NCBI GenBank assembly: GCA_963663475.2
Contig: CAXXJV010000001.1
Span: 1,536,001-1,600,000 of the forward strand
Source of the DNA: Candidatus Cloacimonadales bacterium
Lineage (GTDB): Bacteria; Cloacimonadota; Cloacimonadia; Cloacimonadales; JAFGVF01
Reading direction: 5' to 3'
Length of the DNA: 64,000 nucleotides
Shown here piece after piece: positions 4,483 to 37,577 of this stretch (positions are counted from its first letter, which is position 1; each line of letters begins with the position of its first letter). Made by a program: the position numbers and the translations under genes. Below the pieces are notes generated by a model. It saw nothing but the letters and a program-made list of their open reading frames with translations. It did not search any database and was not told the DNA's origin.

Positions 4483-4730
4483 TTTTTTACCTCAATAACA
4501 ATTTATCAGTCAAATGACAGAAAACTTCAACTGGTATTTTGGGCAAGAAAGAAATAAATAAAATAGTTAGTTGACTGTTGAGAATAGGAGGATCTGCACT
4601 CTTCTCTAAAGCTCTATTGCACCATTTAGGTTAAAATAGAAACTAGCTCTTTGGGTAATAATTATCTGATCAAGAAATTTACATAACTCAAGTAAAAAGC
4701 TATTTGAAATTCTACAAAGATTCTTGTAGC

Positions 4731-4807
4731 ATCCTTAATCCTTCCTTTACGGTCTTTCGATGAAAGTCCGCTTTTCATCGAAAGACCGTAAAGGAAGGGT
4801 TAAGGAT
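4731..4807. repeat. 35-bp-stem hairpin repeat (second copy at 55970-56046)
   Basis: ATCCTTAATCCTTCCTTTACGGTCTTTCGATGAAA-loop-TTTCATCGAAAGACCGTAAAGGAAGGGTTAAGGAT. Confidence 0.85.
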
Positions 4808-4812
4808 GGATT

Positions 4813-5290
4813 AACCAAAATAATACAGTAGACCTTTGCGAATAGCTCAATATTCTTCTGCAAAATTAAGATCTATAATTTCTCTGAATATATATTATAT
4901 GCGTCAAATTTCTGTAAGCTAATTTGCAAGAATAATCTGCACTCTTCACCGGTGATAGTTAGCTTTAGCCAAGTATTACTAAAGTTCTACTGCACTATCT
5001 GGCTTAAACCCAAATAGTGCAGTAGACCTTTGTGAATAGCACTATATTCTTCTGCAAAAGTAACTTCCATAATTTCTCCGAATATATAAATTATATGCGT
5101 CAAAATTCTGTAAGCTATTTTGCTAGAATAATCTGCACTCTTCACTAAAGCTCTACTACACTATCTGGGTTAAAAAATTGATAAAAATATTGACAGATAA
5201 TTTTGAATAAAGCATATAAATTCTAATAATGCAGTAGCTTTTGAGAATAGAAGAATATTCATCACTAAAATCCTACTGCACCATTAGGGA
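4813..5290. repeat. Tandem GTAG-REP doublets (4813-5004, 5008-5170, short copy 5222-5290)
   Basis: Same terminal arms and internal spacer as the 2861 copy; the first copy carries an extra ~30-bp insertion. Confidence 0.85.
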
Positions 5291-5318: not shown

Positions 5319-5891
5319 ATGAAAAAGTTTTTGATTACATTCTATATAATCCTAATAAGTTCTTTATTGCCTGCAAAATCAGGTCTTACAACAGAATCTT
5401 ATATTTATCAGAACCAGAATAATAGATACAAGAAGTATGGCTTTATGCTTGCCTATGCACCTGTAAATGAGGCTTATTCAGCTAAAATATACGGCATTCC
5501 TGAAAATAACATGCTCTCGACTAATTTTTCTTATTTTTCCCTGTATCATGCCAGGAAAGGATCTTTTAAAGGTGGTGAATTTGATGATTCTCCTCTTGAT
5601 TTCTGGGTCAAGGAAGACAAGGATATCTATAGAAAATATATTGTTAATCTAGGTGTTACTCAAGGCTTAACTGCTCAAGGAGGCATATTTTTAGCTTATT
5701 ATGCTGGACTTGGTCTATCTGAGGAATTTCACCAATATAAATCTTCTTATGGAAATTATTGGTTTAAAAATGAAAATAAAATGATAGGGGATATTGGTAT
5801 AGAGTTAAATGGCAGATTGAGTTTAATCAACTTTGGTATAGGATTTTCATATCAATCCCTATATTATCTGTCAGCAGGATTGGAGTTTTAG
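5319..5891 (+). CDS. Putative small outer-membrane beta-barrel protein
   Basis: Signal peptide, alternating Gly/aromatic strands, C-terminal YLSAGLEF. Confidence 0.65.
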   Translation: MKKFLITFYIILISSLLPAKSGLTTESYIYQNQNNRYKKYGFMLAYAPVNEAYSAKIYGIPENNMLSTNFSYFSLYHARKGSFKGGEFDDSPLDFWVKEDKDIYRKYIVNLGVTQGLTAQGGIFLAYYAGLGLSEEFHQYKSSYGNYWFKNENKMIGDIGIELNGRLSLINFGIGFSYQSLYYLSAGLEF

Positions 5892-6077
5892 GGGAAAATA
5901 TAAAAAACAGTAGAACTTGTCGATGACTATATGTTCTACTGTGATAGATGGTTCATTTTTAATCCTGTAATATTGTTGATAATTACTAAATCAAGGTCTT
6001 TAACAATATAATGCGATATTCCTCTTGCGAACTATATTTATCTGCTCTCTTCACAAAAGTTCATCTACATCATCACC

Positions 6078-8150
6078 TTAGAAAGAGTACTCAACCATTA
6101 ACTTGGTCCAAAAGTTATTATGTAACTCATCAGTTCTTTCATTAATAGTATCTGCACCGTAGGAATAACCACCAGACAACTCAATATATTTGTTAAATTT
6201 AAAGAGAAGATTTGCATATAGCCCAATATGATCAGTGTAATTATACTCGTGTCCATTTGCATCAATATATTTACCAGAATAATTATTATAGCGAATACCT
6301 GTTGTTGATTTCAATATTTTCCCAATATTCATGGTAAGATCGCCATTTATATATTGGTATCCGTTATCAAATTCTTCTTTTTCTGATGAAGATAAATCTA
6401 AGTAGTTCATAGATGTCATTGAGAGGGATAGATCATACCTTTCCATAAATGTATATTGGGCATTTACTGTATTTTTGTAAAGCTTATAAGTCTCATTAAA
6501 ATTATAAATTAGGGATTTACCAAAGGCTGTTGAATAGGTAAAAGATAAATTACTATAATTACTCCAAGTAAGTGATTGTCTAAGGTCTGGTTCATTGAAT
6601 ATCTCGCCAATATACTCTTGTTGATTAAATCTAAGTCCTAAGTCATAGTTAAATCCATTCATAGTTGAAGCCGTTAGGTAGGATGTAGCAGATAAACTTC
6701 TCTTATCTCCATTTTCATGAAAGAAACTGTAATCAATCCAAGAATCAAGGCCAAGATATCTTAATTTTTTAGTATCAAAAATATATTCAAAACTGCTTGT
6801 TAATAGAGTGTAATTTGTTTCATCTATTCTCCCCATATCTGCTGTGAAATTCTTTGATGAAGAGTTACTTGCCAACATTATATTATATTTTGGAGCATAA
6901 TAGTTATATTCTAAGGAAAAATCAATCCCATTAATTGTTTCTGTATCATCTGCTTTATTAGTAGATAAATAAGAATCAATCATTAAGCTATTTTTATCAT
7001 TAAAATAGATTACAGGTTTTATCTGTAGCAAACTATTAGTATAGTCATCTTGAGGATTAAATCTATTTAAAGTTGTAAGCTGTAAACTCCAATTATCGCC
7101 CTTAGGCTTAACATTTGCTACAAAATATTGATCTCCAGTATTATATATTTTACCATTGTCGGTTAGCTTTTCATCTTTAGCATAGAGAAGACCATAGCTA
7201 ATGTTTTGAAGATTCCCTGTAAACTTGGTGGCTATTTCAGGTTGTTGAATATGCCTAGTATAAAACATATAATTAGGTATATCAAAGATAGCATAATCTT
7301 CAGTAAAAAAATATCTATTCTCACTTAAATAAGGAGCAAACTCCAAATTATAGACATCTTGTTCATAATCCAAAGGTACTTCTGAGTAGTCCGGATTAAC
7401 AGATGCTTTGAAATTTAAAGCAGAAGATGGATTATAAGCAAAATCTAATCCAGAATATTTAGCTCCATACTTACTATCCTGATCTAAGTTATTATGCATA
7501 TATGAAGTATATCCTCGACTTGTAATATTAAGCTTACTACGGACAATATCAGATAAAATAATATCAAATCCTTTATCGAAATAGTCATTGCTCATCTTAA
7601 TATCAGTATATGGCCCACTATAAAGATGGTACTTCTTGGTATAAGCTCTGGAAAATGCTAACTTCCACTTGTGAACCTCTAGGTTAGGGTAATTTAGGTC
7701 ATTAAAGGGAATAGTGAAATCAACAATCCACTCACTATCTGTGCAAAAAGTCTTATAAGAGTAATTACTATCCCAATCATTACTGATATTAAGATCAGAT
7801 TTTCTTACTCCATCTAATAAAGAACCATTTGGATAAGCATAATAGATATAACCAAATCTATCCTTTGGTGAAACAACAACTTGCACTCTTAAATAATCCG
7901 CTTTCTGATAAGTCTCATGATTAACTAAATTTCCAAAAATCATATCTTCATTCTTAGCCATCACAGCGTGAATGTAGAGATTCTCTTTGTCATAAGAAGC
8001 ACTAATGCTTATTGGTTCAATAAGTTCAAGCATATCATTAGGTTCATTTCTCATAAATTGACTTTGATCTGCTGTGAGGATGTTTTCTCCCCAAATTGAT
8101 GCACATAACAACCATAGTAAATTACCCAACAATATTTTAAAACTAGCCAT
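6078..8150 (-). CDS. DUF5916-like protein: CBM9-like N-domain plus outer-membrane beta-barrel
   Basis: Signal peptide; WIVDFTIPFNDLNY; ASVNPDYSEV...ENRYFFTE...FYTRHI motifs; C-terminal VEYSF. Confidence 0.75.
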   Translation of the reverse strand: MASFKILLGNLLWLLCASIWGENILTADQSQFMRNEPNDMLELIEPISISASYDKENLYIHAVMAKNEDMIFGNLVNHETYQKADYLRVQVVVSPKDRFGYIYYAYPNGSLLDGVRKSDLNISNDWDSNYSYKTFCTDSEWIVDFTIPFNDLNYPNLEVHKWKLAFSRAYTKKYHLYSGPYTDIKMSNDYFDKGFDIILSDIVRSKLNITSRGYTSYMHNNLDQDSKYGAKYSGLDFAYNPSSALNFKASVNPDYSEVPLDYEQDVYNLEFAPYLSENRYFFTEDYAIFDIPNYMFYTRHIQQPEIATKFTGNLQNISYGLLYAKDEKLTDNGKIYNTGDQYFVANVKPKGDNWSLQLTTLNRFNPQDDYTNSLLQIKPVIYFNDKNSLMIDSYLSTNKADDTETINGIDFSLEYNYYAPKYNIMLASNSSSKNFTADMGRIDETNYTLLTSSFEYIFDTKKLRYLGLDSWIDYSFFHENGDKRSLSATSYLTASTMNGFNYDLGLRFNQQEYIGEIFNEPDLRQSLTWSNYSNLSFTYSTAFGKSLIYNFNETYKLYKNTVNAQYTFMERYDLSLSMTSMNYLDLSSSEKEEFDNGYQYINGDLTMNIGKILKSTTGIRYNNYSGKYIDANGHEYNYTDHIGLYANLLFKFNKYIELSGGYSYGADTINERTDELHNNFWTKLMVEYSF

Positions 8151-8179
8151 GCTACTACTCCTTTTAGCTACAATTTACA

Positions 8180-9856
8180 TTATCCTACTTTAATCTCTCT
8201 ATTTATGTATCCTGAAATTATGTCTTGATGAGAAGTTATTATAATTGTCTTGGACTTGAATAAATCAAAGAGAAGACTTAAAATATTATTAGCATTTTCA
8301 ATATCTAAGTTTGCTACCGGCTCATCAAGAAGAATAATTTCTGGATTACAGAGAAAAAGTCTAGCAATAGCGATTCTCTGTTTTTCACCTCCAGATAACT
8401 TTTCTCCATAATTTCCTCTCAAGGAGTATAGTTCTTCATTAGTATTCAAATATTCAAGCTTTACTTTTTCTAATACATTTATCACTTCTGAATCGGTTGC
8501 TTTGGGATTACCATATCTGATATTCTCTATTAGAGGTAGATCATACATATAACTCTCTTGAGTTAAATAACCGATTTTTTTTCTAAGCAACTGAGCTGGT
8601 ATTGATTTGATTTCATAGTTGTTAAGTAAAAGAGAACCTTGATAATTATCCTCTAATTTTGTAAGTAAATTTAGAAGGGTTGTTTTTCCAGAACCACTTG
8701 CTCCTACGAAGGCAACTTTATCTCCAATATTTATATCAAAGGATAGATTGTCGATTATATAGTTATTATGAGCTGTGTCATGTTTGAAAGAGATATTTTT
8801 AAACTGAATTATTGGATTTGAGAAACGTGTAAATATATTTCCTTCTACTATATCGACTATTTCTGCTTTGTTTTCACAATCAGTAATTACTTGAGTAATT
8901 TTTCTATAGGAGACAAATGAGCTTATGATGGAATTATAATATCTTGTGATATTCATAAAAGGAAGATAAAATCTACCTAAATATTGAATGAATACTATTA
9001 AACCTCCTACAGATAATTCATTATTCTTTACTAAATTTATTCCTACTACTATTATGATAACATTTATGATTATCCGGGCACCACTGGTAAAGGGAAAAAT
9101 TAATAGATGTAAATTAAGTCCCTTCTTACCAGTCTGAACATATTCTGTTATTAAATTATTGAATAAACTATCCTCTTCGTTTTCTTTAATAAATAACTTA
9201 AATAATTTATAATCTTTAAAACGACTTATAATCGTCGATTTTATTTTTGACATTTGCTCTCGTTCAAGGTTTGATAAGGCATATTGCTTCTTCCCAAAAA
9301 AGTAACCATTAAAAATAACTAACGGGACAGGTATTAACATTATCAAAGTTAGTGATTTAGATAAGTTAAAACAAACGAACGCCATTATAATGGCAGTAAT
9401 CAAATCAACAACAATTCCATTGATTGGACTTATTATAATATCTCTAATTGCTTCCACATCTGAAATAATCAAGGTAGATGCCTCTCCAGATGTCATTTCT
9501 TTTAAATACTTCGGCTTTACCCTAAGTAACTTAGAATATAATGTTTTCCTAACATCAGCTTTAACCTTGTACCCATATAAGGTAACTAAATAACCTCGTA
9601 TTAAGGATACTATGAAGACCCCTAAGGAAACAATTAAATAAGCAATAACCAAGAAGTTAACTATTGACAAACTACTAAGATTATGAAGAAAACTCAGACT
9701 ATTCTCAATGAGATAATTACTAGTGCGAGATTTTCCAGTTAAGTTATCAATCAATATGCCAAATACTTGCTGAGGCAAGACAGTAACAAAAGATTCTAAG
9801 AATACTAAAAATACTATTATAATAAATGTAGGACTTTTAAGATATTTTAATAACAT
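8180..9856 (-). CDS. ABC transporter ATP-binding/permease (exporter, no C39 peptidase domain)
   Basis: N-terminal TM domain; GASGSGKTT, LSGGEKQR, ILLDEP. Confidence 0.92.
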   Translation of the reverse strand: MLLKYLKSPTFIIIVFLVFLESFVTVLPQQVFGILIDNLTGKSRTSNYLIENSLSFLHNLSSLSIVNFLVIAYLIVSLGVFIVSLIRGYLVTLYGYKVKADVRKTLYSKLLRVKPKYLKEMTSGEASTLIISDVEAIRDIIISPINGIVVDLITAIIMAFVCFNLSKSLTLIMLIPVPLVIFNGYFFGKKQYALSNLEREQMSKIKSTIISRFKDYKLFKLFIKENEEDSLFNNLITEYVQTGKKGLNLHLLIFPFTSGARIIINVIIIVVGINLVKNNELSVGGLIVFIQYLGRFYLPFMNITRYYNSIISSFVSYRKITQVITDCENKAEIVDIVEGNIFTRFSNPIIQFKNISFKHDTAHNNYIIDNLSFDINIGDKVAFVGASGSGKTTLLNLLTKLEDNYQGSLLLNNYEIKSIPAQLLRKKIGYLTQESYMYDLPLIENIRYGNPKATDSEVINVLEKVKLEYLNTNEELYSLRGNYGEKLSGGEKQRIAIARLFLCNPEIILLDEPVANLDIENANNILSLLFDLFKSKTIIITSHQDIISGYINREIKVG

Positions 9857-9973
9857 GAATATTCCTTAAGACATAATAATTTATTAAATGAAATTTTAAA
9901 ACAGGGTTATCGTCAAGTATAATTTCTAATTGCTGTAAAAAATACAAACAATTTTAATTAAATATTATGAATC

Positions 9974-10099
9974 CTATTTTGGATCAACAGGTATTTCAGA
10001 ATAACATGAATCTCCATCATTTTTCCACGTTTTGCAACCAGCACCGATATTGATCATTTGATCAAGTTCTATAATCTCAGGCTTTTCATAAGTTTCCAT
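9974..10099 (-). CDS. Putative RiPP precursor peptide, 41 aa: METYEKPEIIELDQMINIGAGCKTWKNDGDSCYSEIPVDPK
   Basis: AAGGAG RBS directly after the rSAM stop codon; ATG 10099, TAG 9974-9976; YxxPxI leader motif; Cys/Trp/Asp-rich core. Confidence 0.8.
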   Translation of the reverse strand: METYEKPEIIELDQMINIGAGCKTWKNDGDSCYSEIPVDPK

Positions 10100-10110
10100 T
10101 TTTTTCTCCT

Positions 10111-11406
10111 TTATATATTATTTTGATAACCCTCTTTATCAAATTCTGCTCCATTACAAAGAATTGTATTTATATATTCATCCATCTGGCTTTCCTCAAC
10201 TCGAATTATCCAAGCTGGGCAAATAGCGCAATGATATTTTTTATCACAATTATGACATTTAAAAGCTTGTTTTTTAACATTTTTATTTTTTAGTAATAAG
10301 TTAATTTTTTCCCCAATATCCATCCATGCCTTTTCTATAGAAATATTACTATTAGTCATGCTTATAGAAGGAATCCTCAACTGAACACATGGACTAATAT
10401 TTAATTCTGAATCAATAAAACAGGATGTAATTCCACCACCGCAAATCCAATCAATTTCCTTAAGTTGGGGTGGAATTGAATTTAACATTTTTTTTGAAAA
10501 TACTAAATTCTTCTCTCTATCTAGCGGTTCACTTGGTACTAGTTCTTTGATCCGATGAATTTCTTCAGGCAGTAAGTTCATAGATATCAAGTTTAAATCA
10601 GTTGGATCATTTGGTGGGCATATATTTGAACCATAATTGAACGGAATATTTAAATTAGCACTGATATCATAAATTTTTTTTATTATCTCTTTTGTTTCAG
10701 AATGTAACTGGGTTCGTGTTTGAATAGGGATATTGTTTTGTTTGAAAAATTTTATTGAATTCATTATCCGATTGAATGCTTCAGGCATCTTGGTAAAATA
10801 TTCATAAGATATATTATCATAACCATACAAAGAGATAGCAATCATTGATGGCTTTTTATCTATAAAACATTCTTTTAACTCTTCAGTTAAATGATACCCA
10901 TTTGTATATACTGTTATTTTAAATCCTAAAGAATAGGCATGTGAATATATTTCGCAAAAATCAGGGTGTAATGTTGCTTCTCCTCCAGTAAACAATAAAC
11001 TATAGCATCCAATCTTGGAAAGCTCCGTAATAAGCTCTTTAGTCCTTTCAGTATTAATGAAAGAAGATTGTTTTTTGTCTACATAACAATGCTTACACTT
11101 AAAATTACAGATATTTGTTAACTCAATGGTTGCATTTAGAATGTTCCTTTCTAATCTATTTTGGATAGTAATTTCATCAAAGATGTTATAATTTTGTTTT
11201 GCTAGACCATCAAAATTACCTTTTTCAAAGTTATTCAATAATTTTACAAATTCATCATAATCATGAATTAACATACTCTTTTCTATATTAAATATGGACA
11301 TTAACTTGCTTATACAGTCTTTTTTACTCAACCCAAGAGAATGGACTTGGAACATAATTATACTTGTTTTATTCAATTTCATAACTTTTTCATAGTTTTT
11401 ATACAC
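10111..11406 (-). CDS. Radical SAM/SPASM peptide maturase with N-terminal PqqD-like RRE (probable original start 11457, interrupted by TGA at 11431-11433)
   Basis: CNFKCKHC (CxxxCxxC), FTGGE, YTNG; SPASM CGGG...ISPC...CHNC...CAIC; RRE-like LNKTS...DYDEFVKLL. Confidence 0.9.
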   Translation of the reverse strand: MYKNYEKVMKLNKTSIIMFQVHSLGLSKKDCISKLMSIFNIEKSMLIHDYDEFVKLLNNFEKGNFDGLAKQNYNIFDEITIQNRLERNILNATIELTNICNFKCKHCYVDKKQSSFINTERTKELITELSKIGCYSLLFTGGEATLHPDFCEIYSHAYSLGFKITVYTNGYHLTEELKECFIDKKPSMIAISLYGYDNISYEYFTKMPEAFNRIMNSIKFFKQNNIPIQTRTQLHSETKEIIKKIYDISANLNIPFNYGSNICPPNDPTDLNLISMNLLPEEIHRIKELVPSEPLDREKNLVFSKKMLNSIPPQLKEIDWICGGGITSCFIDSELNISPCVQLRIPSISMTNSNISIEKAWMDIGEKINLLLKNKNVKKQAFKCHNCDKKYHCAICPAWIIRVEESQMDEYINTILCNGAEFDKEGYQNNI

Positions 11407-11518
11407 TAAAAATAACTCAACACCTATTTTTCATAATTTTAAATTTATGTATTGCATCAAAACTCCATTTTTTTTATTATGTTTCACTTATTTTCTTTTA
11501 GTTTATTAATGAGTTCTA

Positions 11519-11719
11519 TCAATTTTCTAAGTAATAGATTACACCATTAACCTCTATTAAAACAATATTTTCATTATTATCCTCATAAATAATGTGATAC
11601 TCCACATGCTCCAAATTAGATAAGATCATTTTATCAATTTGTACAAAATTAACTTGACTATAATTACATACAAAAAAAATAAATACACTAAGTAATAGAA
11701 AAAAAATAATCTTATTCAT
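11519..11719 (-). CDS. Small secreted/membrane protein (SQVN family, paralog at 36388-36525)
   Basis: Signal-like hydrophobic N-terminus followed by SQVN; GAGGA RBS. Confidence 0.65.
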   Translation of the reverse strand: MNKIIFFLLLSVFIFFVCNYSQVNFVQIDKMILSNLEHVEYHIIYEDNNENIVLIEVNGVIYYLEN

Positions 11720-11813
11720 GAAGTTCCTCTGTAATAATAAATGAGGAAAATTAAAAAGTCCCGCAAAGATATGTTATACTACTGTATAATAATAAATTAT
11801 AAAGGTATAGATA

Positions 11814-12812
11814 ATGGAAAGATATTATGATAGGGTGTATACAACCGCTAAAAAAGTAGCCTTTTTATATATAAAAAATGCAGATGATGTTGAAGATATT
11901 ATTCAGTTGACTCTTATGCAATTTTATTTAAACAAAGATAAAATTACTGAAGAAAAAATTTATAACTGGGTATTTACAGTTACTAAAAACTTCTGTATGC
12001 AGTATTTTCGTTCAAGGAAAAAAGAAGATGAGTTAAAAAAATCTTATATAATTGAGGCAAGTAGTAATTTATCCCATGATGATAATCAGGATAAAAAAAA
12101 TGAAGAAAATTTAATCATAATAGATATTGATCAGTATGGATTTATTAATAACAAAGATAAAGTTATTTTAAAAGATTATATTGATAAACATAATAGTATT
12201 TCTAAGCTAAGTAAAAGCTATAAAGTGAAAAAAAAGACTCTACAGAATAAGATAAACCTTTTATTGAAAGAGATTAAACTCTATCATATTATTCAGTCGC
12301 AACCTCATGTATTTGATGCTTTGCCAGGCACTAAATTATCCAGAAATATTAATAATTTCCTTAAAACTATCACTAAGGCGATTGAGACAAATGAGATAGA
12401 TAAATTAAAACACTATCTCAGTGACTGTAAAATAAACGATAGTATTGATAATTTATATGTTAAGGAAGTTTCTTCATACAGAATTCAAATTGTAGCATCA
12501 AATATTTATATGTTAATCGTAGGTTTTATAGATTTGGATGACCATGTTAAATTTTTTATGGCTCGATTTAAATTAATAAATAACTATACTTTGAAATTTA
12601 TTGAATTTCCCATCTTTCCTAAGAGAGTTGTTGCTCTTGATAAAAAATATGCAGAGGGGAAAGAAGGGTTAAAAGGACTTTCTGATGATAGAGGTGCTAG
12701 TAATATGAAGTTTGGAACTCCAGACACTATACTAGACAAAAGAATGGGTAAAGTTGTTCAAACAGAAAATGAATTTAAACCCAAAAATAAGGCAGTAGAT
12801 CTTTGTGAATAG
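11814..12812 (+). CDS. ECF-like sigma-70 factor with long C-terminal extension
   Basis: Region 2 pattern DVEDIIQ...WVFTVTKNFC; paralog at 36618. Confidence 0.75.
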   Translation: MERYYDRVYTTAKKVAFLYIKNADDVEDIIQLTLMQFYLNKDKITEEKIYNWVFTVTKNFCMQYFRSRKKEDELKKSYIIEASSNLSHDDNQDKKNEENLIIIDIDQYGFINNKDKVILKDYIDKHNSISKLSKSYKVKKKTLQNKINLLLKEIKLYHIIQSQPHVFDALPGTKLSRNINNFLKTITKAIETNEIDKLKHYLSDCKINDSIDNLYVKEVSSYRIQIVASNIYMLIVGFIDLDDHVKFFMARFKLINNYTLKFIEFPIFPKRVVALDKKYAEGKEGLKGLSDDRGASNMKFGTPDTILDKRMGKVVQTENEFKPKNKAVDLCE

Positions 12813-12943
12813 CAGAATATTCTTTTGCAATAGTAACTTACATAATTTTCATGAATTTATATATATTATATGGGTCAAAATTTTGTAAGCTATTTTGCCA
12901 GAATAATCTGCACTCTTCATCAAAGTTTACTGAACCATTTGGT
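12779..12943. repeat. GTAG-REP doublet overlapping the 3' end of the sigma gene
   Basis: GCAGTAGATCTTTGTGAATAGC...CTCTTCATCAAAGTTTACTG, with the same spacer as the other copies. Confidence 0.8.
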
Positions 12944-14007: not shown

Positions 14008-14602
14008 AATTAACTCCTTAATATATATTTTTCTAATTACCAAAAAATAGTAAGTAAATTTTATAGCAAGGAAATTTTTTGAGAAAGCTGAGAATTAGTA
14101 ATTAAGGGAACAAGATTAGTCATTATGAAGTTAATAAAAGTAACATATGACTTAGAAAGATAAAAGAACAAGTTGTAAATATACCCTGCAGTTTTTTTTA
14201 AAAATATTTTCAAAAAGTGGGACAAATTTGAAAAAGTGGACACTAGATATAAGTGAAGGGAAATTTCAATCGACAAATAGCAACCGACACCAAGAATGAC
14301 TGCTCAAATTAATCAATTGTTATTTAATACTTTAGATTTTAAAAGAGCTCAAATAGTGCACACTTATCATTAACTATCATATTAATTTCAACTTGACCCA
14401 AGAGAGCGCAATTTCTCGTATCCTGAAAGGTTTTAAAGAGGCTCAAGTTCAAGTCTGGTGGAAGAAAATAAGTAAATAATAAAATGTTTACGTAGTTTAT
14501 ATCCCTGAAAGGGATTAGTAATTTAGCCTGGGGTAAGCTACTCTCAGGAGCGTCACCCCAGGTCCAATATCCAAAACTAATACCAGAACCCTGTAAGGGT
14601 TT

Positions 14603-16265
14603 CAGGCTGTTGACAAACCTATTGTAATTAATAATATGATTTAATATAATACATAAAAAGTTGAATAATTAGCAATAAATATCTTGACATAATATACCCA
14701 TAATACTTTATTGTACAAGAGGTAAGATATGATTGAAAAAATAAATAGACAGACAGAAATTGAGATGGTAACCATCGAACAATTAGTAAAAGAAGACCAT
14801 CCTATAAGAAAAATTGACAAATATATAAATTTTGATTTTATATATGATAAAGTAAAACATTTGTATTGTTTGGATAACGGACGTCCAGGTATTGACCCTG
14901 TAAGATTCTTTAAAATGCTACTAATCGGATATTTATATGGGATTAAGTCAGAAAGAAAATTAGTTCTTGAAATAGAACATAGTACAGCCTTTAGGTGGTT
15001 TTTAGGTTATAAACTATTAGATAAGATACCTCACCATTCAGTTTTTAGCAAAAATCGACAAAGACGATTCAAGGATAGTTCAATATTTCAAGAAATTTTT
15101 GAAGATTTAGTCTTCATGGCACTGAAGTCTGATATGCTTGATGGCAAAGTATTATATACAGACTCTACACATACTAAAGCCAATGCAAATAACAAGAATT
15201 TCAGAAAAATAGAGGTTACCAAAACTCCCCAAGAATATGTTGGAGAATTAAATAAAGCAGTAAATGAAGATAGAGTAGCTCATGATAAGAAACCTTTCCC
15301 TGAAGCCGAGATTAAAGAAGAAACCAAGACAATAAAGCAAAGTACGACAGATCCAGATAGTGGAGAAATGAATCGTGAACGCAAGCCACGGGGTTTTTAT
15401 TATTTAGATCACAGAACAACAGATTCTCTCTTTAATATAATTACAGATGTTCATATAACTCCGGCTAATGTAAGTGATAGTACATGCTATATAGACAGGT
15501 TAAAATATCAGATTAACAGGTTTGGTTTTGATGTTGAAGCTGTGGGTTTAGATGCTGGTTATAATACAACATATATTTGTAAGGAACTATATGATTTAGG
15601 CATATTTGCAACAATGGGAAGAAGAAAAGCAGGAGGGAAAAAGCACTTTTTTAAGAAGAATAAGTTTAAATATGATAAAGATAAAGATATATGGATATGT
15701 CCTAATAATTGTATCTTAAAGTATTATACAACCACGAGAACAGGTTCAAAAGAGTATAAATCGTCAAAATCAGATTGTAAAAACTGTAAATATTTTGGGC
15801 AGTGTATAACTAATAAAAATGGAACTAAATCAATAAGAAATCATGTTTGGCAAAAATATAAAGATTGGGTTAAAGATAATACTAATAGTGAATATGGTAA
15901 GGAAATATATCGACGGCGAAAAGAAACTATAGAACGGAGTTTCGCTAATAGCAAAGAATTACACGGTTATCGATATGCTAAATTTAGGGGAATTGAGAAA
16001 ATGAAATTCCAAGCTTACATGACCGCTATAGCTCAAAATATCAAAAAAATGGCCAATATCCTCAGCAGACGTGGAGGTGGTGGAACCAATCCATTATCAA
16101 AATTTATTTTTTCACAAATGAAGTATTATATTTACATTCTGAAGTTCCAAATCAGTAAAATTAACATAAAAAAAGGCAAAACATAAATGACTCTTCAGAT
16201 TTATTTAAATTGCTAAAAACAGCGTAAATTTCTATTTAAAAAAGAGGGGGTTTGTCTACTACCTG
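14603..16265 (+). mobile_element. IS1182-family insertion sequence (1663 bp)
   Basis: IRL CAGGCTGTTGACAAACC and IRR GGTTTGTCTACTACCTG (14/17 match); flanking 17-bp direct repeat GAACCCTGTAAGGGTTT at 14586-14602 and 16266-16282. Confidence 0.92.
14729..16186 (+). CDS. IS1182-family DDE transposase
   Basis: EDHPIRKID, GRPGIDP, TDSTHTKANAN, STTDPD, LDAGY, RRKETIERSFA motifs. Confidence 0.95.
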   Translation: MIEKINRQTEIEMVTIEQLVKEDHPIRKIDKYINFDFIYDKVKHLYCLDNGRPGIDPVRFFKMLLIGYLYGIKSERKLVLEIEHSTAFRWFLGYKLLDKIPHHSVFSKNRQRRFKDSSIFQEIFEDLVFMALKSDMLDGKVLYTDSTHTKANANNKNFRKIEVTKTPQEYVGELNKAVNEDRVAHDKKPFPEAEIKEETKTIKQSTTDPDSGEMNRERKPRGFYYLDHRTTDSLFNIITDVHITPANVSDSTCYIDRLKYQINRFGFDVEAVGLDAGYNTTYICKELYDLGIFATMGRRKAGGKKHFFKKNKFKYDKDKDIWICPNNCILKYYTTTRTGSKEYKSSKSDCKNCKYFGQCITNKNGTKSIRNHVWQKYKDWVKDNTNSEYGKEIYRRRKETIERSFANSKELHGYRYAKFRGIEKMKFQAYMTAIAQNIKKMANILSRRGGGGTNPLSKFIFSQMKYYIYILKFQISKINIKKGKT

Positions 16266-16810
16266 GAACCCTGTAAGGGTTTAATATAATGCCAACAAGG
16301 TAATATAATAAGTCTTTGATATACATGTGTTTTTATTAAACCCTTACAGGGTTACACTTTTTATATGCATCATAACCCAGGGTTGCGATACTTTCAGCAT
16401 CTTACCCTGGGCTAAACTATTTATCCCCTTTAGGGATATAAGACCTATCCCTTCAGGATTATGTCTTATTCAACTAAAAACTACTATCAACAGTACATTC
16501 TAATCCGTAAATTAGTGTAATACAATATCTAGTGCAAAATAATGCTAAATATTTTCCACCAGACTTGAACTTGAGCCTTTAAAAAGATAATCTCTCGAAA
16601 AAATATCAAAAAATGTCAAGAAAACATGAAATGTCCAATATTATCGACTTCTTTGAGGATAAGCTATTGGGGAGAGTGACTTGATGGTTGAACAGTCTCC
16701 AAGAAAAGCAGATAATCTTGAAATATATGTTGACAAATATAAAACAAAAAATATGGTGTATAATAACTAAAACAAAAAAAGAAGTTTTAACTAAATTAGG
16801 GGGATTGATT

Positions 16811-36617: not shown

Positions 36618-37577
36618 ATGGATAATGATTTTAAAGAGTATTTTAATTATGCCAAGGAAATTGCATATAAATTAGTTAAAGATTATGAATCAGCTGAGGA
36701 CATTGCAAGTAATTGTGTGGTTAAACTTGAAAAGGTTTCAAGAACAAGAGAGGTTGCTAATCCTAAAGGATGGATTAGAAAGGTAGTTACTAACTCATGT
36801 AATGATTATTTTAATAAGCAAAAAAGACTATTGGAAGTTCCCTTAGATGAAGAAAAACTTGAATATTTTGCTTATAGAAATGAAGAAAATAGTAGTAAAA
36901 TTATAGATTTTGAGATCGATTTTAGTAAGTATCCTTTTCTTGAACATAAAGATAGAGAAAAAAAGATATTAGAGTATTTCTATATAGAGAAAGAATCAAA
37001 AGCTAAAATTGCCCAGAGATTTAAACTTAAAGAGAATAAAGTCAGAGAATTAATATATAAATATACTAATGAAATTGAGTTATATCATTTAATTGATAAT
37101 AAGACCCTATTTTTTAAGTTATTACCTTATACCAACCTTACCCTTAAGATTAATAATTTCATACATAAACTAAAGATCTGTCTTAATAATAATGATTTAT
37201 CTTCTATGAAACGATACATGAAAAATGCTAAAGTTAATGACTTTTCAAAGATTAAATTTAAAGAAATGAAGTCATGTAAATTACAGTATATTGATGAACA
37301 AAGCTATTGTCTTTTAGTTGTTTTTATTAATCAAGCTAATAAACACAGCTTTTTTTTCATAGAGTTCATTATAACAAGCTCTGGCAATGTACAAGTAATT
37401 GAATTTCCTATCTGGCCTCAAGGAGTTCTACAAATTGATAAAAGCAAATTAAAAAAAGAAATTAAGCAAGAAGACCTAGATAGCTTCAAGGGTTCTTATA
37501 ACGAAAGATTAGGAAGTTATGATGAATTGAAAGAAAAAGGTATTGCTAAAAAAATTCAACAAAAAGATAAGTTTTAA
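36618..37577 (+). CDS. ECF-like sigma-70 factor with long C-terminal extension (paralog of 11814)
   Basis: AEDIAS...WIRKVVTNSC; shares EIxLYH, LPxTxL, INNF and IEFPI motifs with the 11814 ORF. Confidence 0.75.
   Translation: MDNDFKEYFNYAKEIAYKLVKDYESAEDIASNCVVKLEKVSRTREVANPKGWIRKVVTNSCNDYFNKQKRLLEVPLDEEKLEYFAYRNEENSSKIIDFEIDFSKYPFLEHKDREKKILEYFYIEKESKAKIAQRFKLKENKVRELIYKYTNEIELYHLIDNKTLFFKLLPYTNLTLKINNFIHKLKICLNNNDLSSMKRYMKNAKVNDFSKIKFKEMKSCKLQYIDEQSYCLLVVFINQANKHSFFFIEFIITSSGNVQVIEFPIWPQGVLQIDKSKLKKEIKQEDLDSFKGSYNERLGSYDELKEKGIAKKIQQKDKF

Follow-up and report, generated by a model that had tools for sequence, protein, structure and literature searches.

Can a bacterium of the candidate phylum Cloacimonadota make, modify and export a ribosomally encoded peptide from one self-contained set of genes? 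The question is raised by positions 6078-12812 of a 64,000-nt stretch of DNA from a Candidatus Cloacimonadales bacterium (assembly GCA_963663475.2, contig CAXXJV010000001.1, forward-strand positions 1,536,001 to 1,600,000), hereafter the window, whose genome is referred to as G000. Five minus-strand genes, encoding a small exported protein, a radical S-adenosylmethionine (rSAM) enzyme, a 41-aa peptide, an ATP-binding cassette (ABC) exporter and an outer-membrane barrel, lie here opposite a divergent gene for a sigma factor of the extracytoplasmic function (ECF) type. A preliminary description, made from the letters alone, had read them as the locus of a peptide that is made on ribosomes and modified after translation (RiPP), and every element it listed was recovered in place among the open reading frames (ORFs) and their translations. 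Our analysis indicates that window 6079-12788 is probably a mobile cassette for making, modifying and exporting an rSAM-modified RiPP in a diderm bacterium. Its elements are:

6078-8150, minus strand: outer-membrane barrel gene, 690 aa with signal helix, beta-sandwich and barrel; last gene in the operon
8180-9856, minus strand: ABC exporter gene, 558 aa, fused permease and ATPase (PF00664, PF00005)
9974-10099, minus strand: precursor peptide gene, 41 aa, METYEKPEIIELDQMINIGAGCKTWKNDGDSCYSEIPVDPK
10106-10110, minus strand: AGGAG ribosome-binding site, 6 nt ahead of the precursor ATG and directly past the rSAM stop; kept in the congener G002
10111-11457, minus strand: rSAM maturase gene, full frame from ATG 11457; longest open part from GTG 11406 (10111-11406, 431 aa)
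11433-11431, minus strand: premature TGA, codon 9 of the rSAM frame; AGA (Arg) in relatives
11519-11719, minus strand: small exported-protein ORF, 66 aa, hydrophobic N-terminus; partner of the sigma gene
11720-11813, no strand: divergent intergenic region, presumed promoter region in both directions
11814-12812, plus strand: ECF-type sigma gene, 332 aa, PF04542 at 6.2e-07; divergent
12780-12925, no strand: copy of a ~145-nt high-copy repeat that adjoins the block on its right, from repeat search and word depth

The block, its candidate precursor and the rSAM enzyme

The block recurs whole, at another chromosomal site, in the congener G002 (window 6079-12788 against L013 3750-10471; 92.9% nucleotide identity by blastn), where the match begins at the barrel stop codon and ends within the last sigma codons; the arrangement is therefore more than chance. 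Its flanks are a MATE gene, a 190-aa ORF and an ornithine carbamoyltransferase gene in the window, and a dipeptidase gene and AbiEi/AbiEii-like genes in G002. Direct repeats of 152 nt (97% alike; L013 3580-3731 and 10718-10869) enclose the block in G002 and duplicate the 3' end of the AbiEii-like gene, suggesting insertion by recombination there, and no integrase or transposase was found inside the block. We regard window 6079-12788 as most likely one self-contained, horizontally mobile unit. Pfam matches were obtained for the ABC, rSAM and sigma proteins and for none of the barrel, the peptide and the 66-aa ORF, and no block protein reached a curated NCBIfam cut-off.

The candidate precursor gene opens 11 nt past the rSAM stop codon and is preceded, as first described, by a strong ribosome-binding site (AGGAG, 6 nt before the ATG). 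Its product comprises a leader of about residues 1-21 (Y4-x-x-P7-x-I9, ...IGAG; YEKPEIIEL) and a core of about residues 22-41 with invariant C22, D28, D30, C32, E35 and D39, and it is conserved in G002 and in the database cluster P0046. Twelve codons differ between the window and G002, six synonymously and six non-synonymously: codons 1-16 hold two synonymous changes only, the Cys22 codon differs synonymously, and the non-synonymous changes cluster at 17-24 and 36-38. The leader is thus conserved and the core variable around invariant cysteines, a conserved coding signature. Within the core, Trp25 is replaced by Cys in P0046 (W25C) and K23 by Arg in G002. The residues IGAG before C22 were also considered as a double-glycine leader; the hydrophobic spacing fits this loosely, but the idea was dropped, since G002 has GAA at this place and the exporter lacks a peptidase.

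A search of 5.8 billion protein clusters with the precursor returned its own cluster only, and the early statement that it falls outside recognised families stands for Pfam and NCBIfam, none of whose families match it; an orphan, however, it is not. To place it, relatives of the rSAM enzyme were scanned in one genome per species (603 pattern matches, 465 confirmed by tblastn), and 80 loci with enzymes of 25-31% identity were kept (L014-L093), mostly from Acidobacteriota. At 71 of them a cysteine-containing ORF with an N-terminal Yxx-P-x-[LIVMF] motif lies on the same strand at most 1.4 kb downstream, a count obtained by regular expression with no shifted-window control. The preliminary description had made its reading depend on homologous rSAMs having a conserved adjacent peptide ORF, and these loci bear that out. 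The 75 ORFs found at the 80 loci were reduced to 70 by dropping five spurious extras before a hidden Markov model (HMM) was built, and the 70 that were kept clearly belong to a single family, KKPYEPPxLxxISLRPEEAVLGHCK…C…C…GS.

Closer relatives of the enzyme have closer leaders. L014, from an Oscillospiraceae genome with a 350-aa enzyme of the P0004-P0009 type, encodes MDKYEKATFEYIELIPDEVVALGCWNCGGSSGGSC among genes for PqqD (TIGR03859, 4e-11), an HprK-like protein, a B12-rSAM, an S24-like peptidase and an ABC exporter; L003, from the order of the window, encodes MEYSTPEVIAVSLDD…SCEDPDEDCSTWRWS ahead of a 514-aa rSAM fused to a RiPP recognition element (RRE); and the L086 peptide is MKAYTKPTIEFIELRPEE…. 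When the 70-peptide HMM was searched against the six-frame translations of the window, L013 and L003 (2055 segments in all), the L003 peptide came first (9.2e-4), the window peptide second (0.037, the best in the window) and the G002 peptide fourth (0.19). The window peptide has the motif of the YxxPxL family (Y4-E-K-P7-E-I9) beside an rSAM homologous to those of the family (tblastn 1e-31 to 1e-42), and no HprK-like partner.

The enzyme belongs to the rSAM superfamily, as a check of PF04055 proposed at the outset confirmed (E 2.4e-18; 67.3 bits, cut-off 29.5). Its CX3CX2C motif (CNFKCKHC) is present, with C118, C122 and C125 invariant among 12 homologues. SPASM domains are defined by the seven-cysteine pattern C...C...CX2CX5CX2C...C. 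The C-terminal cysteines C340, C358, C402, C405, C411 and C414 are invariant in the 12 aligned homologues, C435 is present in at least 90% of them, and the seven fit this pattern, which would correspond to two auxiliary [4Fe-4S] clusters. The SPASM model TIGR04085 aligned over positions 1-82 of 93 and stayed below its cut-off of 27 (20.9 bits for the window enzyme, 22.7 for that of G002), and PF13186 is present in the precomputed annotation of some homologues, P0014 and P0020 among them. At the other end of the enzyme, three N-terminal domains (G002, P0001, P0003) were compared by hhalign with 16 stand-alone PqqD proteins from the neighbourhoods of related rSAMs; the N-terminal 90 aa aligned over 71 columns (95.4%, E 1.9e-8; reversed control 0.2%). 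Judged by this profile comparison, the N-terminus of the enzyme is a homologue of these separate PqqD proteins.

In a profile search of solved structures SkfB was the top match (3.3e-29), with a decarboxylase, PqqE, SuiB and CteB next in line near 1e-13; CteB (E 9.3e-13) aligned over positions 4-415, its RRE included. PapB (NF047865) was absent from the best 25 of the 57 NCBIfam families matched by the window enzyme and from the best 25 of the 48 matched by that of G002, and the DynA and DarW models were not among the listed matches of the window enzyme. The enzyme is rare: 45 homologues were found at E<=1e-3 among 5.8 billion protein clusters, the close ones being only P0001 (98%), P0002 (86%) and P0003 (40%). 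It occurs in two of the seven genomes of the genus and, at E<=1e-30, in three of 232 genomes of the phylum, the third (G142) with a different, Acidobacteria-type enzyme. The P0003 gene was not found in genome or metagenome contigs, the latter yielding only the near-identical, 1139-nt L094.

A complex of the G002 enzyme with the 41-aa peptide, each supplied with an alignment, was predicted beside three controls. The ipSAE was 0.69 (runs 0.66, 0.69 and 0.76), against 0.01 for the best control, and passed a mark that is reached by 116 of 157 solved complexes and by 2 of 215 mismatched pairs; the runs agreed in at least 47% of contacts, with a partner pLDDT (predicted local distance difference test) of at least 46. 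Leader residues 1-15 were placed on residues 17-36 and 56-74 of the enzyme, in the RRE. Core residues C22, D28 and D30-C32 were placed near residues 108-109, 154, 181-183, 251, 277-279, 340-346, 358-360 and 414-416, of which the stretches 340-346, 358-360 and 414-416 surround SPASM cysteines. The leader is accordingly predicted to lie on the RRE and the core near the auxiliary clusters.

A premature stop in the maturase gene

The locus had been called complete-looking, which does not hold for the rSAM gene. From ATG 11457 its frame reads MQYINLKL-TGA-KIGVELFLV, with an in-frame stop at 11433-11431, codon 9, and a search of the genome with the enzyme likewise returned one TGA inside the window match. 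The relatives P0001, P0002 and G002 start with MQYINLKLRKIG; codon 9 is Arg in G002, L094 and P0001, and Arg or Lys across P0001, P0002, P0003 and G002, the near-identical metagenome contig L094 having AGA where the window has TGA. The state at 11433 is known for run X1 (as in the window), L094, P0001 and G002. The Logan contig of run X1, which is independent, is letter-identical to window 5900-12821 at a depth of 82, and the TGA is therefore no assembly slip. The amino-acid changes that separate the window from G002 in the first 230 residues are common to L094, whose gene is intact, so that the stop looks recent. A restart at GTG 11406 would lose the first 17 residues, which span the first two PqqD-like strands in the hhalign alignment. 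The cassette is probably silent or impaired in the window strain and intact in G002 and in the metagenome variants.

Whether the cassette is, in this strain, a recently inactivated remnant, from which no modified peptide would come and of which the unmodified peptide, exporter, barrel and sigma factor would remain, we consider evenly balanced; such a state would be compatible with the RiPP reading for the lineage. The TGA replaces a codon for Arg or Lys in four relatives and recurs in the independent contig, TGA acts as a stop elsewhere in the block (the 66-aa ORF ends in it), and a restart at GTG 11406 would remove part of the PqqD-like domain. Against a remnant, there is no further decay: the N-terminal changes are those of the intact L094 gene, every other gene of the block is open, the 431-aa protein from the GTG start keeps most of the predicted leader-contact residues (25-33 and 56-74), and read-through is possible.

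Exporter, outer-membrane barrel and sigma factor

The ABC protein is an exporter of the MsbA/LssB/CydDC-like type (PF00664 at 1.3e-34, PF00005 at 2.3e-31) and is 96.8% identical in amino acids to its G002 copy. Its alignments with the bacteriocin exporter model TIGR01193 and with NHLM_micro_ABC1 begin only at model positions 194 and 196, respectively, and it therefore has no C39 peptidase domain; no peptidase Pfam family matched it either. It had rightly been described as peptidase-less, and is thus no peptidase-containing ABC transporter (PCAT). The block does not have the make-up of a type I secretion system: it holds no other ORF of at least 60 aa that could serve as adaptor, and TolC is absent among the listed fold matches of the barrel.

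The barrel had been called DUF5916-like. It has no direct Pfam or NCBIfam match, and the label came instead through its homologues, of which phmmer found 2282 at E<=1e-3 among 1.84 billion representatives and 57 at E<=1e-30, the latter typically 670-710 aa long and ~30% identical. Seven of 53 aligned homologues match PF19313 DUF5916 (best 4e-20) and four match CBM9_1, and in the three nearest Atlas clusters DUF5916 is annotated in 19-84% of members (score 0.97). On these sequence relationships the barrel would be a distant DUF5916/CBM9-like relative. Its AlphaFold2 model, a confident one (pLDDT 90.9, predicted template modelling score 0.82), consists of a signal helix, an N-terminal beta-sandwich at ~23-200 and a beta-barrel of ~24 strands, for which Foldseek returned from the PDB generic outer-membrane barrels only (LptD, ushers, TonB-dependent receptors; template modelling score (TM) 0.24-0.39). 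The gene is single-copy in the genome, and relatives in the congeners are 96% (G006), 91% (G002) and 76% (G005) identical. Sixteen barrel loci of more distant kinship were read with ~1.5 kb of flank, or less where the contig ended sooner, and five of them have an ABC gene directly upstream. A literature search, largely without coverage of subscription journals, found no paper on DUF5916.

In the congener G006 the chromosomal context of the window is preserved, with MATE gene, 190-aa ORF, barrel (96%), sigma factor (98%) and carbamoyltransferase in synteny, and window 8095-11484, from the end of the barrel signal peptide through the ABC, peptide and rSAM genes, is replaced by 4.1 kb. The replacement carries genes for two ABC-2 permeases (PF06182) and one ABC ATPase, together with a 419-aa rSAM/SPASM enzyme and a 39-aa cysteine-containing ORF, MILVIKSVVEPNSEDTKEECNQRTQRCPEPPKTNCQNNN. 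Among NCBIfam models the enzyme scores on geopeptide maturase (3.1e-43), CefB (2.2e-37) and PapB (4.9e-32), each below cut-off. Enzymes of this second type occur in three of the 203 genomes of the order (G006, G031 and G094), where the gene order peptide(s), rSAM, ATPase, two permeases, barrel is collinear in all three:

L184 8866-12944: second cassette of G006
L186 4328-10533: second cassette of G031
L190 4807-10793: second cassette of G094

The peptides share the core C(N/D)(Q/R)RT(Q/H)RCP, followed by a Pro-rich tail, and G031 has two tandem precursor genes. The second cassette resembles that of the window in gene logic and in its terminal barrel, and in G006 it fills the exact place of the ABC-peptide-rSAM segment; it differs in an unrelated rSAM subfamily, in an unrelated peptide encoded upstream of the enzyme and in an ABC system split into an ATPase and two permeases. 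Thus, in congeners, two unrelated rSAM-peptide-ABC sets are exchanged between the same barrel and sigma factor, and each of the five rSAM cassettes of both types found in the order has a barrel of this family as its last gene. Tentatively, and at odds we would put well short of even, the DUF5916-like barrels of Cloacimonadales, from a widespread outer-membrane family, could be a dedicated outer-membrane part for rSAM peptides, with barrel and NTF2-type sigma factor as a fixed dock for exchanged cargo in this genus, and the window product could be the first member of a new two-thioether class with a leader recognised by a fused, highly diverged PqqD domain. If so, complete sets of enzyme, precursor and ABC genes would pass from one species to another through recombination inside the dock, in the manner of polymorphic bacteriocin loci.

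The sigma factor matches PF04542 (29.6 bits, cut-off 24, E 6.2e-07) and stays below cut-off on TIGR02937 (33.4 bits against 42.9) and TIGR02985 (41.5 against 126.4). Its AlphaFold2 model (pLDDT 78.3) places sigma2 at residues 1-83 and, beyond a disordered linker, sigma4 at 113-161, with an alpha+beta domain at 166-321. By VIA-align, where Z values below 8 may reflect just a common arrangement and those of the sigma model are middling, sigma2 resembles SigK, SigW and RpoE (Z 9-9.5), region 4 resembles SigR (Z 7.6), residues 165-320 resemble NTF2-like, cystatin-like and scytalone-dehydratase folds (Z 8-9, root-mean-square deviation ~3 A over 90-104 residues), and SigG1 (7qh5) aligns over residues 1-267 (Z 8.0). 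Pfam gave no match to residues 163-332. The C-terminal extension of ~155 aa provisionally looks NTF2/SnoaL-like on these models, which would liken the protein to the SnoaL-extended ECF sigma factors such as SigG1, in groups that we take to be those named ECF41 and ECF56. The family is narrow (five clusters among 5.8 billion), with ~10 paralogues in the genome that are 29-40% identical over their full length and of which two or three contain stops. Since the G031 and G094 cassettes have no sigma gene, the link of sigma factor and cassette is genus-specific and rests on its co-transfer with the block.

The small ORF had been counted as a gene of the RiPP operon, an assignment that was not sustained. 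The genome has five paralogues of it, all of which adjoin a sigma paralogue in divergent orientation; the 66-aa ORF thus belongs to a recurring sigma module and is not specific to the RiPP. Its hydrophobic N-terminus followed by a conserved Cys suggests that it may be a lipoprotein. In L094 the ORF is intact, in G002 it has a frameshift within a T-run, and in G006 it is split; as G002 and G006 are one- or two-contig assemblies, homopolymer error is possible for these breaks. The module of sigma factor and small protein occurs at least six times in the genome, at window 36630-37577 (plus strand), where the sigma copy carries a TAA stop, and at five sites of G000:C1 (568591-569828, 1025919-1027166, 1269331-1270572, 1915019-1916224 and 2603412-2604514). 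The neighbours of the sigma paralogues are unrelated secreted proteins, some with C-terminal tails like those of type IX secretion systems.

Methanobactin operons, with the TonB-dependent receptor MbnT and the ECF sigma/anti-sigma pair MbnIR, are a precedent for a RiPP accompanied by an outer-membrane receptor and an ECF sigma factor. By analogy, the barrel, and perhaps the ABC protein, might import or sense the peptide or protect its producer, the peptide being a signal or metal binder relayed to the sigma factor. The lack of a type I periplasmic adaptor in the cassette would suit such a role, as would the CBM9-like, binding-type sandwich at the N-terminus of the barrel, the travel of the sigma gene with the block and the scores of the G006-type ABC-2 transporters on lantibiotic-protection and DrrA-type models. 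The congener G005 adds a barrel and an ABC-2 set with no rSAM, peptide or sigma gene adjoining (L185 6975-11600), as expected of orphan immunity or uptake genes; this set may be an orphan export or immunity remnant. On the other side, the barrel has no plug of the TonB-receptor kind and its receptor fold matches are generic (TM 0.24-0.39), no anti-sigma factor is encoded, the sigma factor has ~10 paralogues with unrelated neighbours and is absent from the G031 and G094 cassettes, and the window ABC protein is of the exporter type. An import or immunity role is unlikely on balance, and export of a modified peptide remains the preferred reading.

Regulatory signals were sought between 5800 and 13000. 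Promoter-like sites were at chance level (52 against 49.5 expected), and so the promoter role of the intergenic region 11720-11813, which differs from G002 by two mismatches (counted by eye) in a block of 92.9% identity, can be put forward as presumptive; terminator-like sites numbered two against 1.6 expected, and the 136-nt spacer after the precursor gene folds no better than shuffled sequences (z -0.48), with no sign of an attenuator hairpin.

Several features of the surroundings were recorded. Further copies of the ~145-nt repeat lie left of the block at 4813-4954 and 5007-5150 (repeat search). It is a high-copy genomic repeat, given a word depth of ~3300 against 82 over the block (run X1); its copies enclose the cassette-bearing region with ~40-fold excess depth in the organism's own run, and it may resemble miniature inverted-repeat transposable or repetitive extragenic palindromic elements. 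In the gene-poor stretch left of the cassette, a 36-nt inverted repeat (4730-4808, 97% complementary, 7-nt loop) is found. The 190-aa ORF (5319-5891, plus strand), with a signal peptide and a C-terminal GLEF, is probably a small outer-membrane beta-barrel protein; it is 97% identical in G006, lies outside the G002 mobile block and matches no Pfam or NCBIfam family. To the right, a 485-aa transposase-like ORF of an insertion sequence (IS) lies at 14729-16186 (plus strand), and no near-identical copy of the IS-like stretch 14600-16300 was found in the plasmid collection. Contigs from other runs show single-base homopolymer length variants at 10100-10105, 11720, 8575, 11386 and 12228: X5 and X10 have one additional base in the A-run between ribosome-binding site and precursor ATG, and X6 has 1-nt deletions within the ABC, rSAM and sigma genes. 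These differences are either strain variation or long-read artefacts. The genome consists of two replicons of 2.895 and 0.403 Mb with a GC content of ~30%. Runs holding the stretch come from wastewater, manure, compost, landfill and faeces (12 studies), and no RNA run is among those listed. Both these sources and the taxa of the Atlas clusters nearest to the barrel agree with a placement in Cloacimonadota.

The proposed pathway among known systems

Taken together, these observations suggest the following route. The leader of the 41-aa precursor (Y4-x-x-P7-x-I9) would bind the fused PqqD-like RRE, as predicted; the rSAM/SPASM enzyme, with one SAM cluster and two auxiliary [4Fe-4S] clusters, would then abstract a hydrogen from the C-terminal core and cross-link it. 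By family resemblance, the product would most likely contain two thioethers joining the invariant Cys22 and Cys32 to nearby acceptors, of the sactionine or ranthionine type. The leader would be removed by an enzyme encoded elsewhere, the peptidase-less ABC exporter would carry the product over the inner membrane, and the DUF5916-like barrel, given its conserved linkage, would pass or handle it at the outer membrane. The divergent ECF-type sigma factor with its NTF2-like extension may control the operon, as its co-transfer suggests. The reading given in the preliminary description, of an rSAM/SPASM RiPP cassette that has its own exporter, is well supported, the chemistry being proposed by family resemblance.

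A number of points weigh against this reading. The enzyme gene is broken in the window strain. PF05402 (PqqD) gave no match at E<=10 to the N-terminal 95 aa of the window or G002 enzyme, with 0.026 for the L003 relative and 9.3e-20 and 2.7e-18 for the stand-alone partners at L086 and L034, and PF13186 (SPASM) gave no match to the window enzyme at E<=10; the PqqD-like N-terminus and the SPASM domain that had been proposed are borne out by the hhalign alignment and the seven-cysteine pattern instead, and not by these family models. No curated NCBIfam cut-off is reached by the enzyme, whose top NCBIfam scores are to the cofactor enzymes AhbD/NirJ (103 bits, where the cut-off is 500). For the peptide, the HMM gave a borderline match in both the window and G002, and the complex prediction may partly be memory, as solved RRE-leader complexes (CteB, SuiB) exist. 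The cassette contains neither a leader peptidase nor a periplasmic adaptor. Relatives of the barrel occur in 128 of the 203 genomes of the order and such rSAMs in five only, so the barrel family has a wider role, and G005 keeps its barrel with an ABC-2 set away from any rSAM. The sigma gene, finally, is absent beside the G031 and G094 cassettes.

The linkage itself could be of another kind. Darobactin- and dynobactin-type peptides have a Trp-centred core cross-linked by a DarE/DynA-type rSAM; the core here has a single Trp, which is Cys in P0046. It nevertheless contains K23-x-W25-K26, and a C-C or C-O link through Trp25 or a Lys, as in streptide or darobactin, with the cysteines as disulfide or metal ligands, would be in keeping with SuiB (Lys-Trp) and PqqE among the solved relatives. 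The chemistry of rSAM/SPASM enzymes cannot be deduced from sequence, as stated in the accessible part of PMC10288494. Trp25 is, however, Cys in the near-identical P0046 and K23 is Arg in G002, so that the sole invariant reactive side chains are C22, C32 and Asp/Glu; related peptide families retain Cys as a conserved core feature; and among solved structures the thioether-forming SkfB stands far ahead (3.3e-29 against 5.6e-14). We judge a non-thioether link improbable. That the 41-aa ORF is no substrate, and that the rSAM matures a protein or cofactor (as anSME, NirJ/AhbD or PqqE-like enzymes do) among unrelated neighbours, is very improbable, since the AhbD/NirJ scores and the lack of a curated peptide-maturase model at cut-off that would favour it are offset by matches that score a fifth of the cut-off and extend over just the general rSAM core (profile positions 4-165 of 339), by the PqqD-like peptide-binding domain, by an ORF conserved with a coding signature 11 nt past the enzyme stop with its own AGGAG, by similar peptides adjoining homologous enzymes at 71 of 80 loci and by a block that moves as a unit.

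RRE-rSAM/SPASM RiPP clusters with ABC exporters are of a well-known kind. The window resembles the systems of SkfA/SkfB, CteA/CteB (thermocellin) and PapA/PapB (freyrasin) in its short cysteine-containing precursor, in an rSAM that combines auxiliary Fe-S clusters with a peptide-binding domain at the N-terminus, and in its ABC exporter. PapB substrates have Asp/Glu a few residues from Cys, according to the available portion of PMC9413430, and so does the window core. Unlike these sactipeptide and ranthipeptide systems, the window host is a diderm and its operon ends in a DUF5916-like barrel; no family model reaches its cut-off, identity to anything named is at most 25-31%, and the precursor is unrelated.

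After P0003, the nearest relatives of the enzyme (25-37% identity) belong to cassettes of PqqD, rSAM/SPASM and an HprK-like protein, which are akin to Haft's SynChlorMet/GeoRSP in NCBIfam. Such cassettes, with a ~57-aa peptide and apparently uncurated, were observed in Acidobacteriota, Chloroflexota, Desulfobacterota, Cloacimonadales and others, including Oscillospiraceae (L034 7529-10480, L086 437-5120 and L014 1719-8348). A leader signature is common to the window (METYEKPEIIEL), L014 (MDKYEKATFEYIEL) and L034 (KKPYEPPQLTTISL), Cys-Lys opens the core in both systems, and L014 and L086 have an ABC exporter, as in the window. In contrast, they encode a separate PqqD, an HprK-like protein and often an S24/S26-type peptidase, whereas the window has a fused RRE and both partners are absent; and their three-Cys core ends in GS, whereas that of the window has two Cys. 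Barrel and sigma factor were not seen in the four loci read (L014, L034, L079 and L086), the other loci being unsearched for them. No relevant paper on HprK/PqqD/rSAM cassettes, including SynChlorMet, GeoRSP and TIGR04133, was found in the literature search.

SigG1 of Streptomyces tsukubaensis (PDB 7qh5), as a SnoaL/NTF2-extended ECF sigma factor, combines sigma2, sigma4 and an NTF2-like domain with no adjoining anti-sigma factor, as the window protein would on its provisional fold assignment; the window protein differs in its lineage-restricted sequence family and in the small exported-protein partner seen in six module copies. Bacteroidales RiPP clusters encode a PCAT, an adaptor and a TolC-type outer-membrane protein, as far as the accessible text of PMC10352776 goes, and methanobactin operons a TonB-type outer-membrane receptor and an ECF sigma factor (compare PMC3621798). 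Both are RiPP genes of Gram-negative bacteria accompanied by an outer-membrane protein, methanobactin also by an ECF sigma factor; the window barrel, however, is neither a TonB-dependent receptor nor TolC-like, and there is no anti-sigma factor, adaptor or ABC peptidase domain. The earlier suggestion that the pairing of an outer-membrane barrel with an extended sigma factor is undescribed accordingly holds for a barrel of the DUF5916 type, as far as the searches reach, and not more broadly, as RiPP clusters with outer-membrane proteins are in print and the SnoaL-like sigma architecture is known. No relevant paper on RiPPs of Cloacimonadota was found in the same literature search, with its limited coverage of subscription journals. 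What is new here is the precursor and the enzyme subfamily, the DUF5916-type barrel as a conserved member of the operon, and the exchange of cargo in congeners.

As the conserved last gene of peptide-maturation and export operons, the barrel would offer an initial clue to the function of DUF5916, whose members number in the thousands. The cassette swap at one locus is a natural experiment on which parts are product-specific. The three-Cys peptides with a YxxPxL leader, from Acidobacteriota and other phyla, form a large, apparently undescribed family that shares the enzyme lineage, and the same assays could characterise it. Cloacimonadota, according to the abstracts consulted, are without cultured representatives and common in wastewater and anaerobic digesters. 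The analysis points to RiPP loci in this candidate phylum; antagonistic or signalling peptides could shape communities of this kind.

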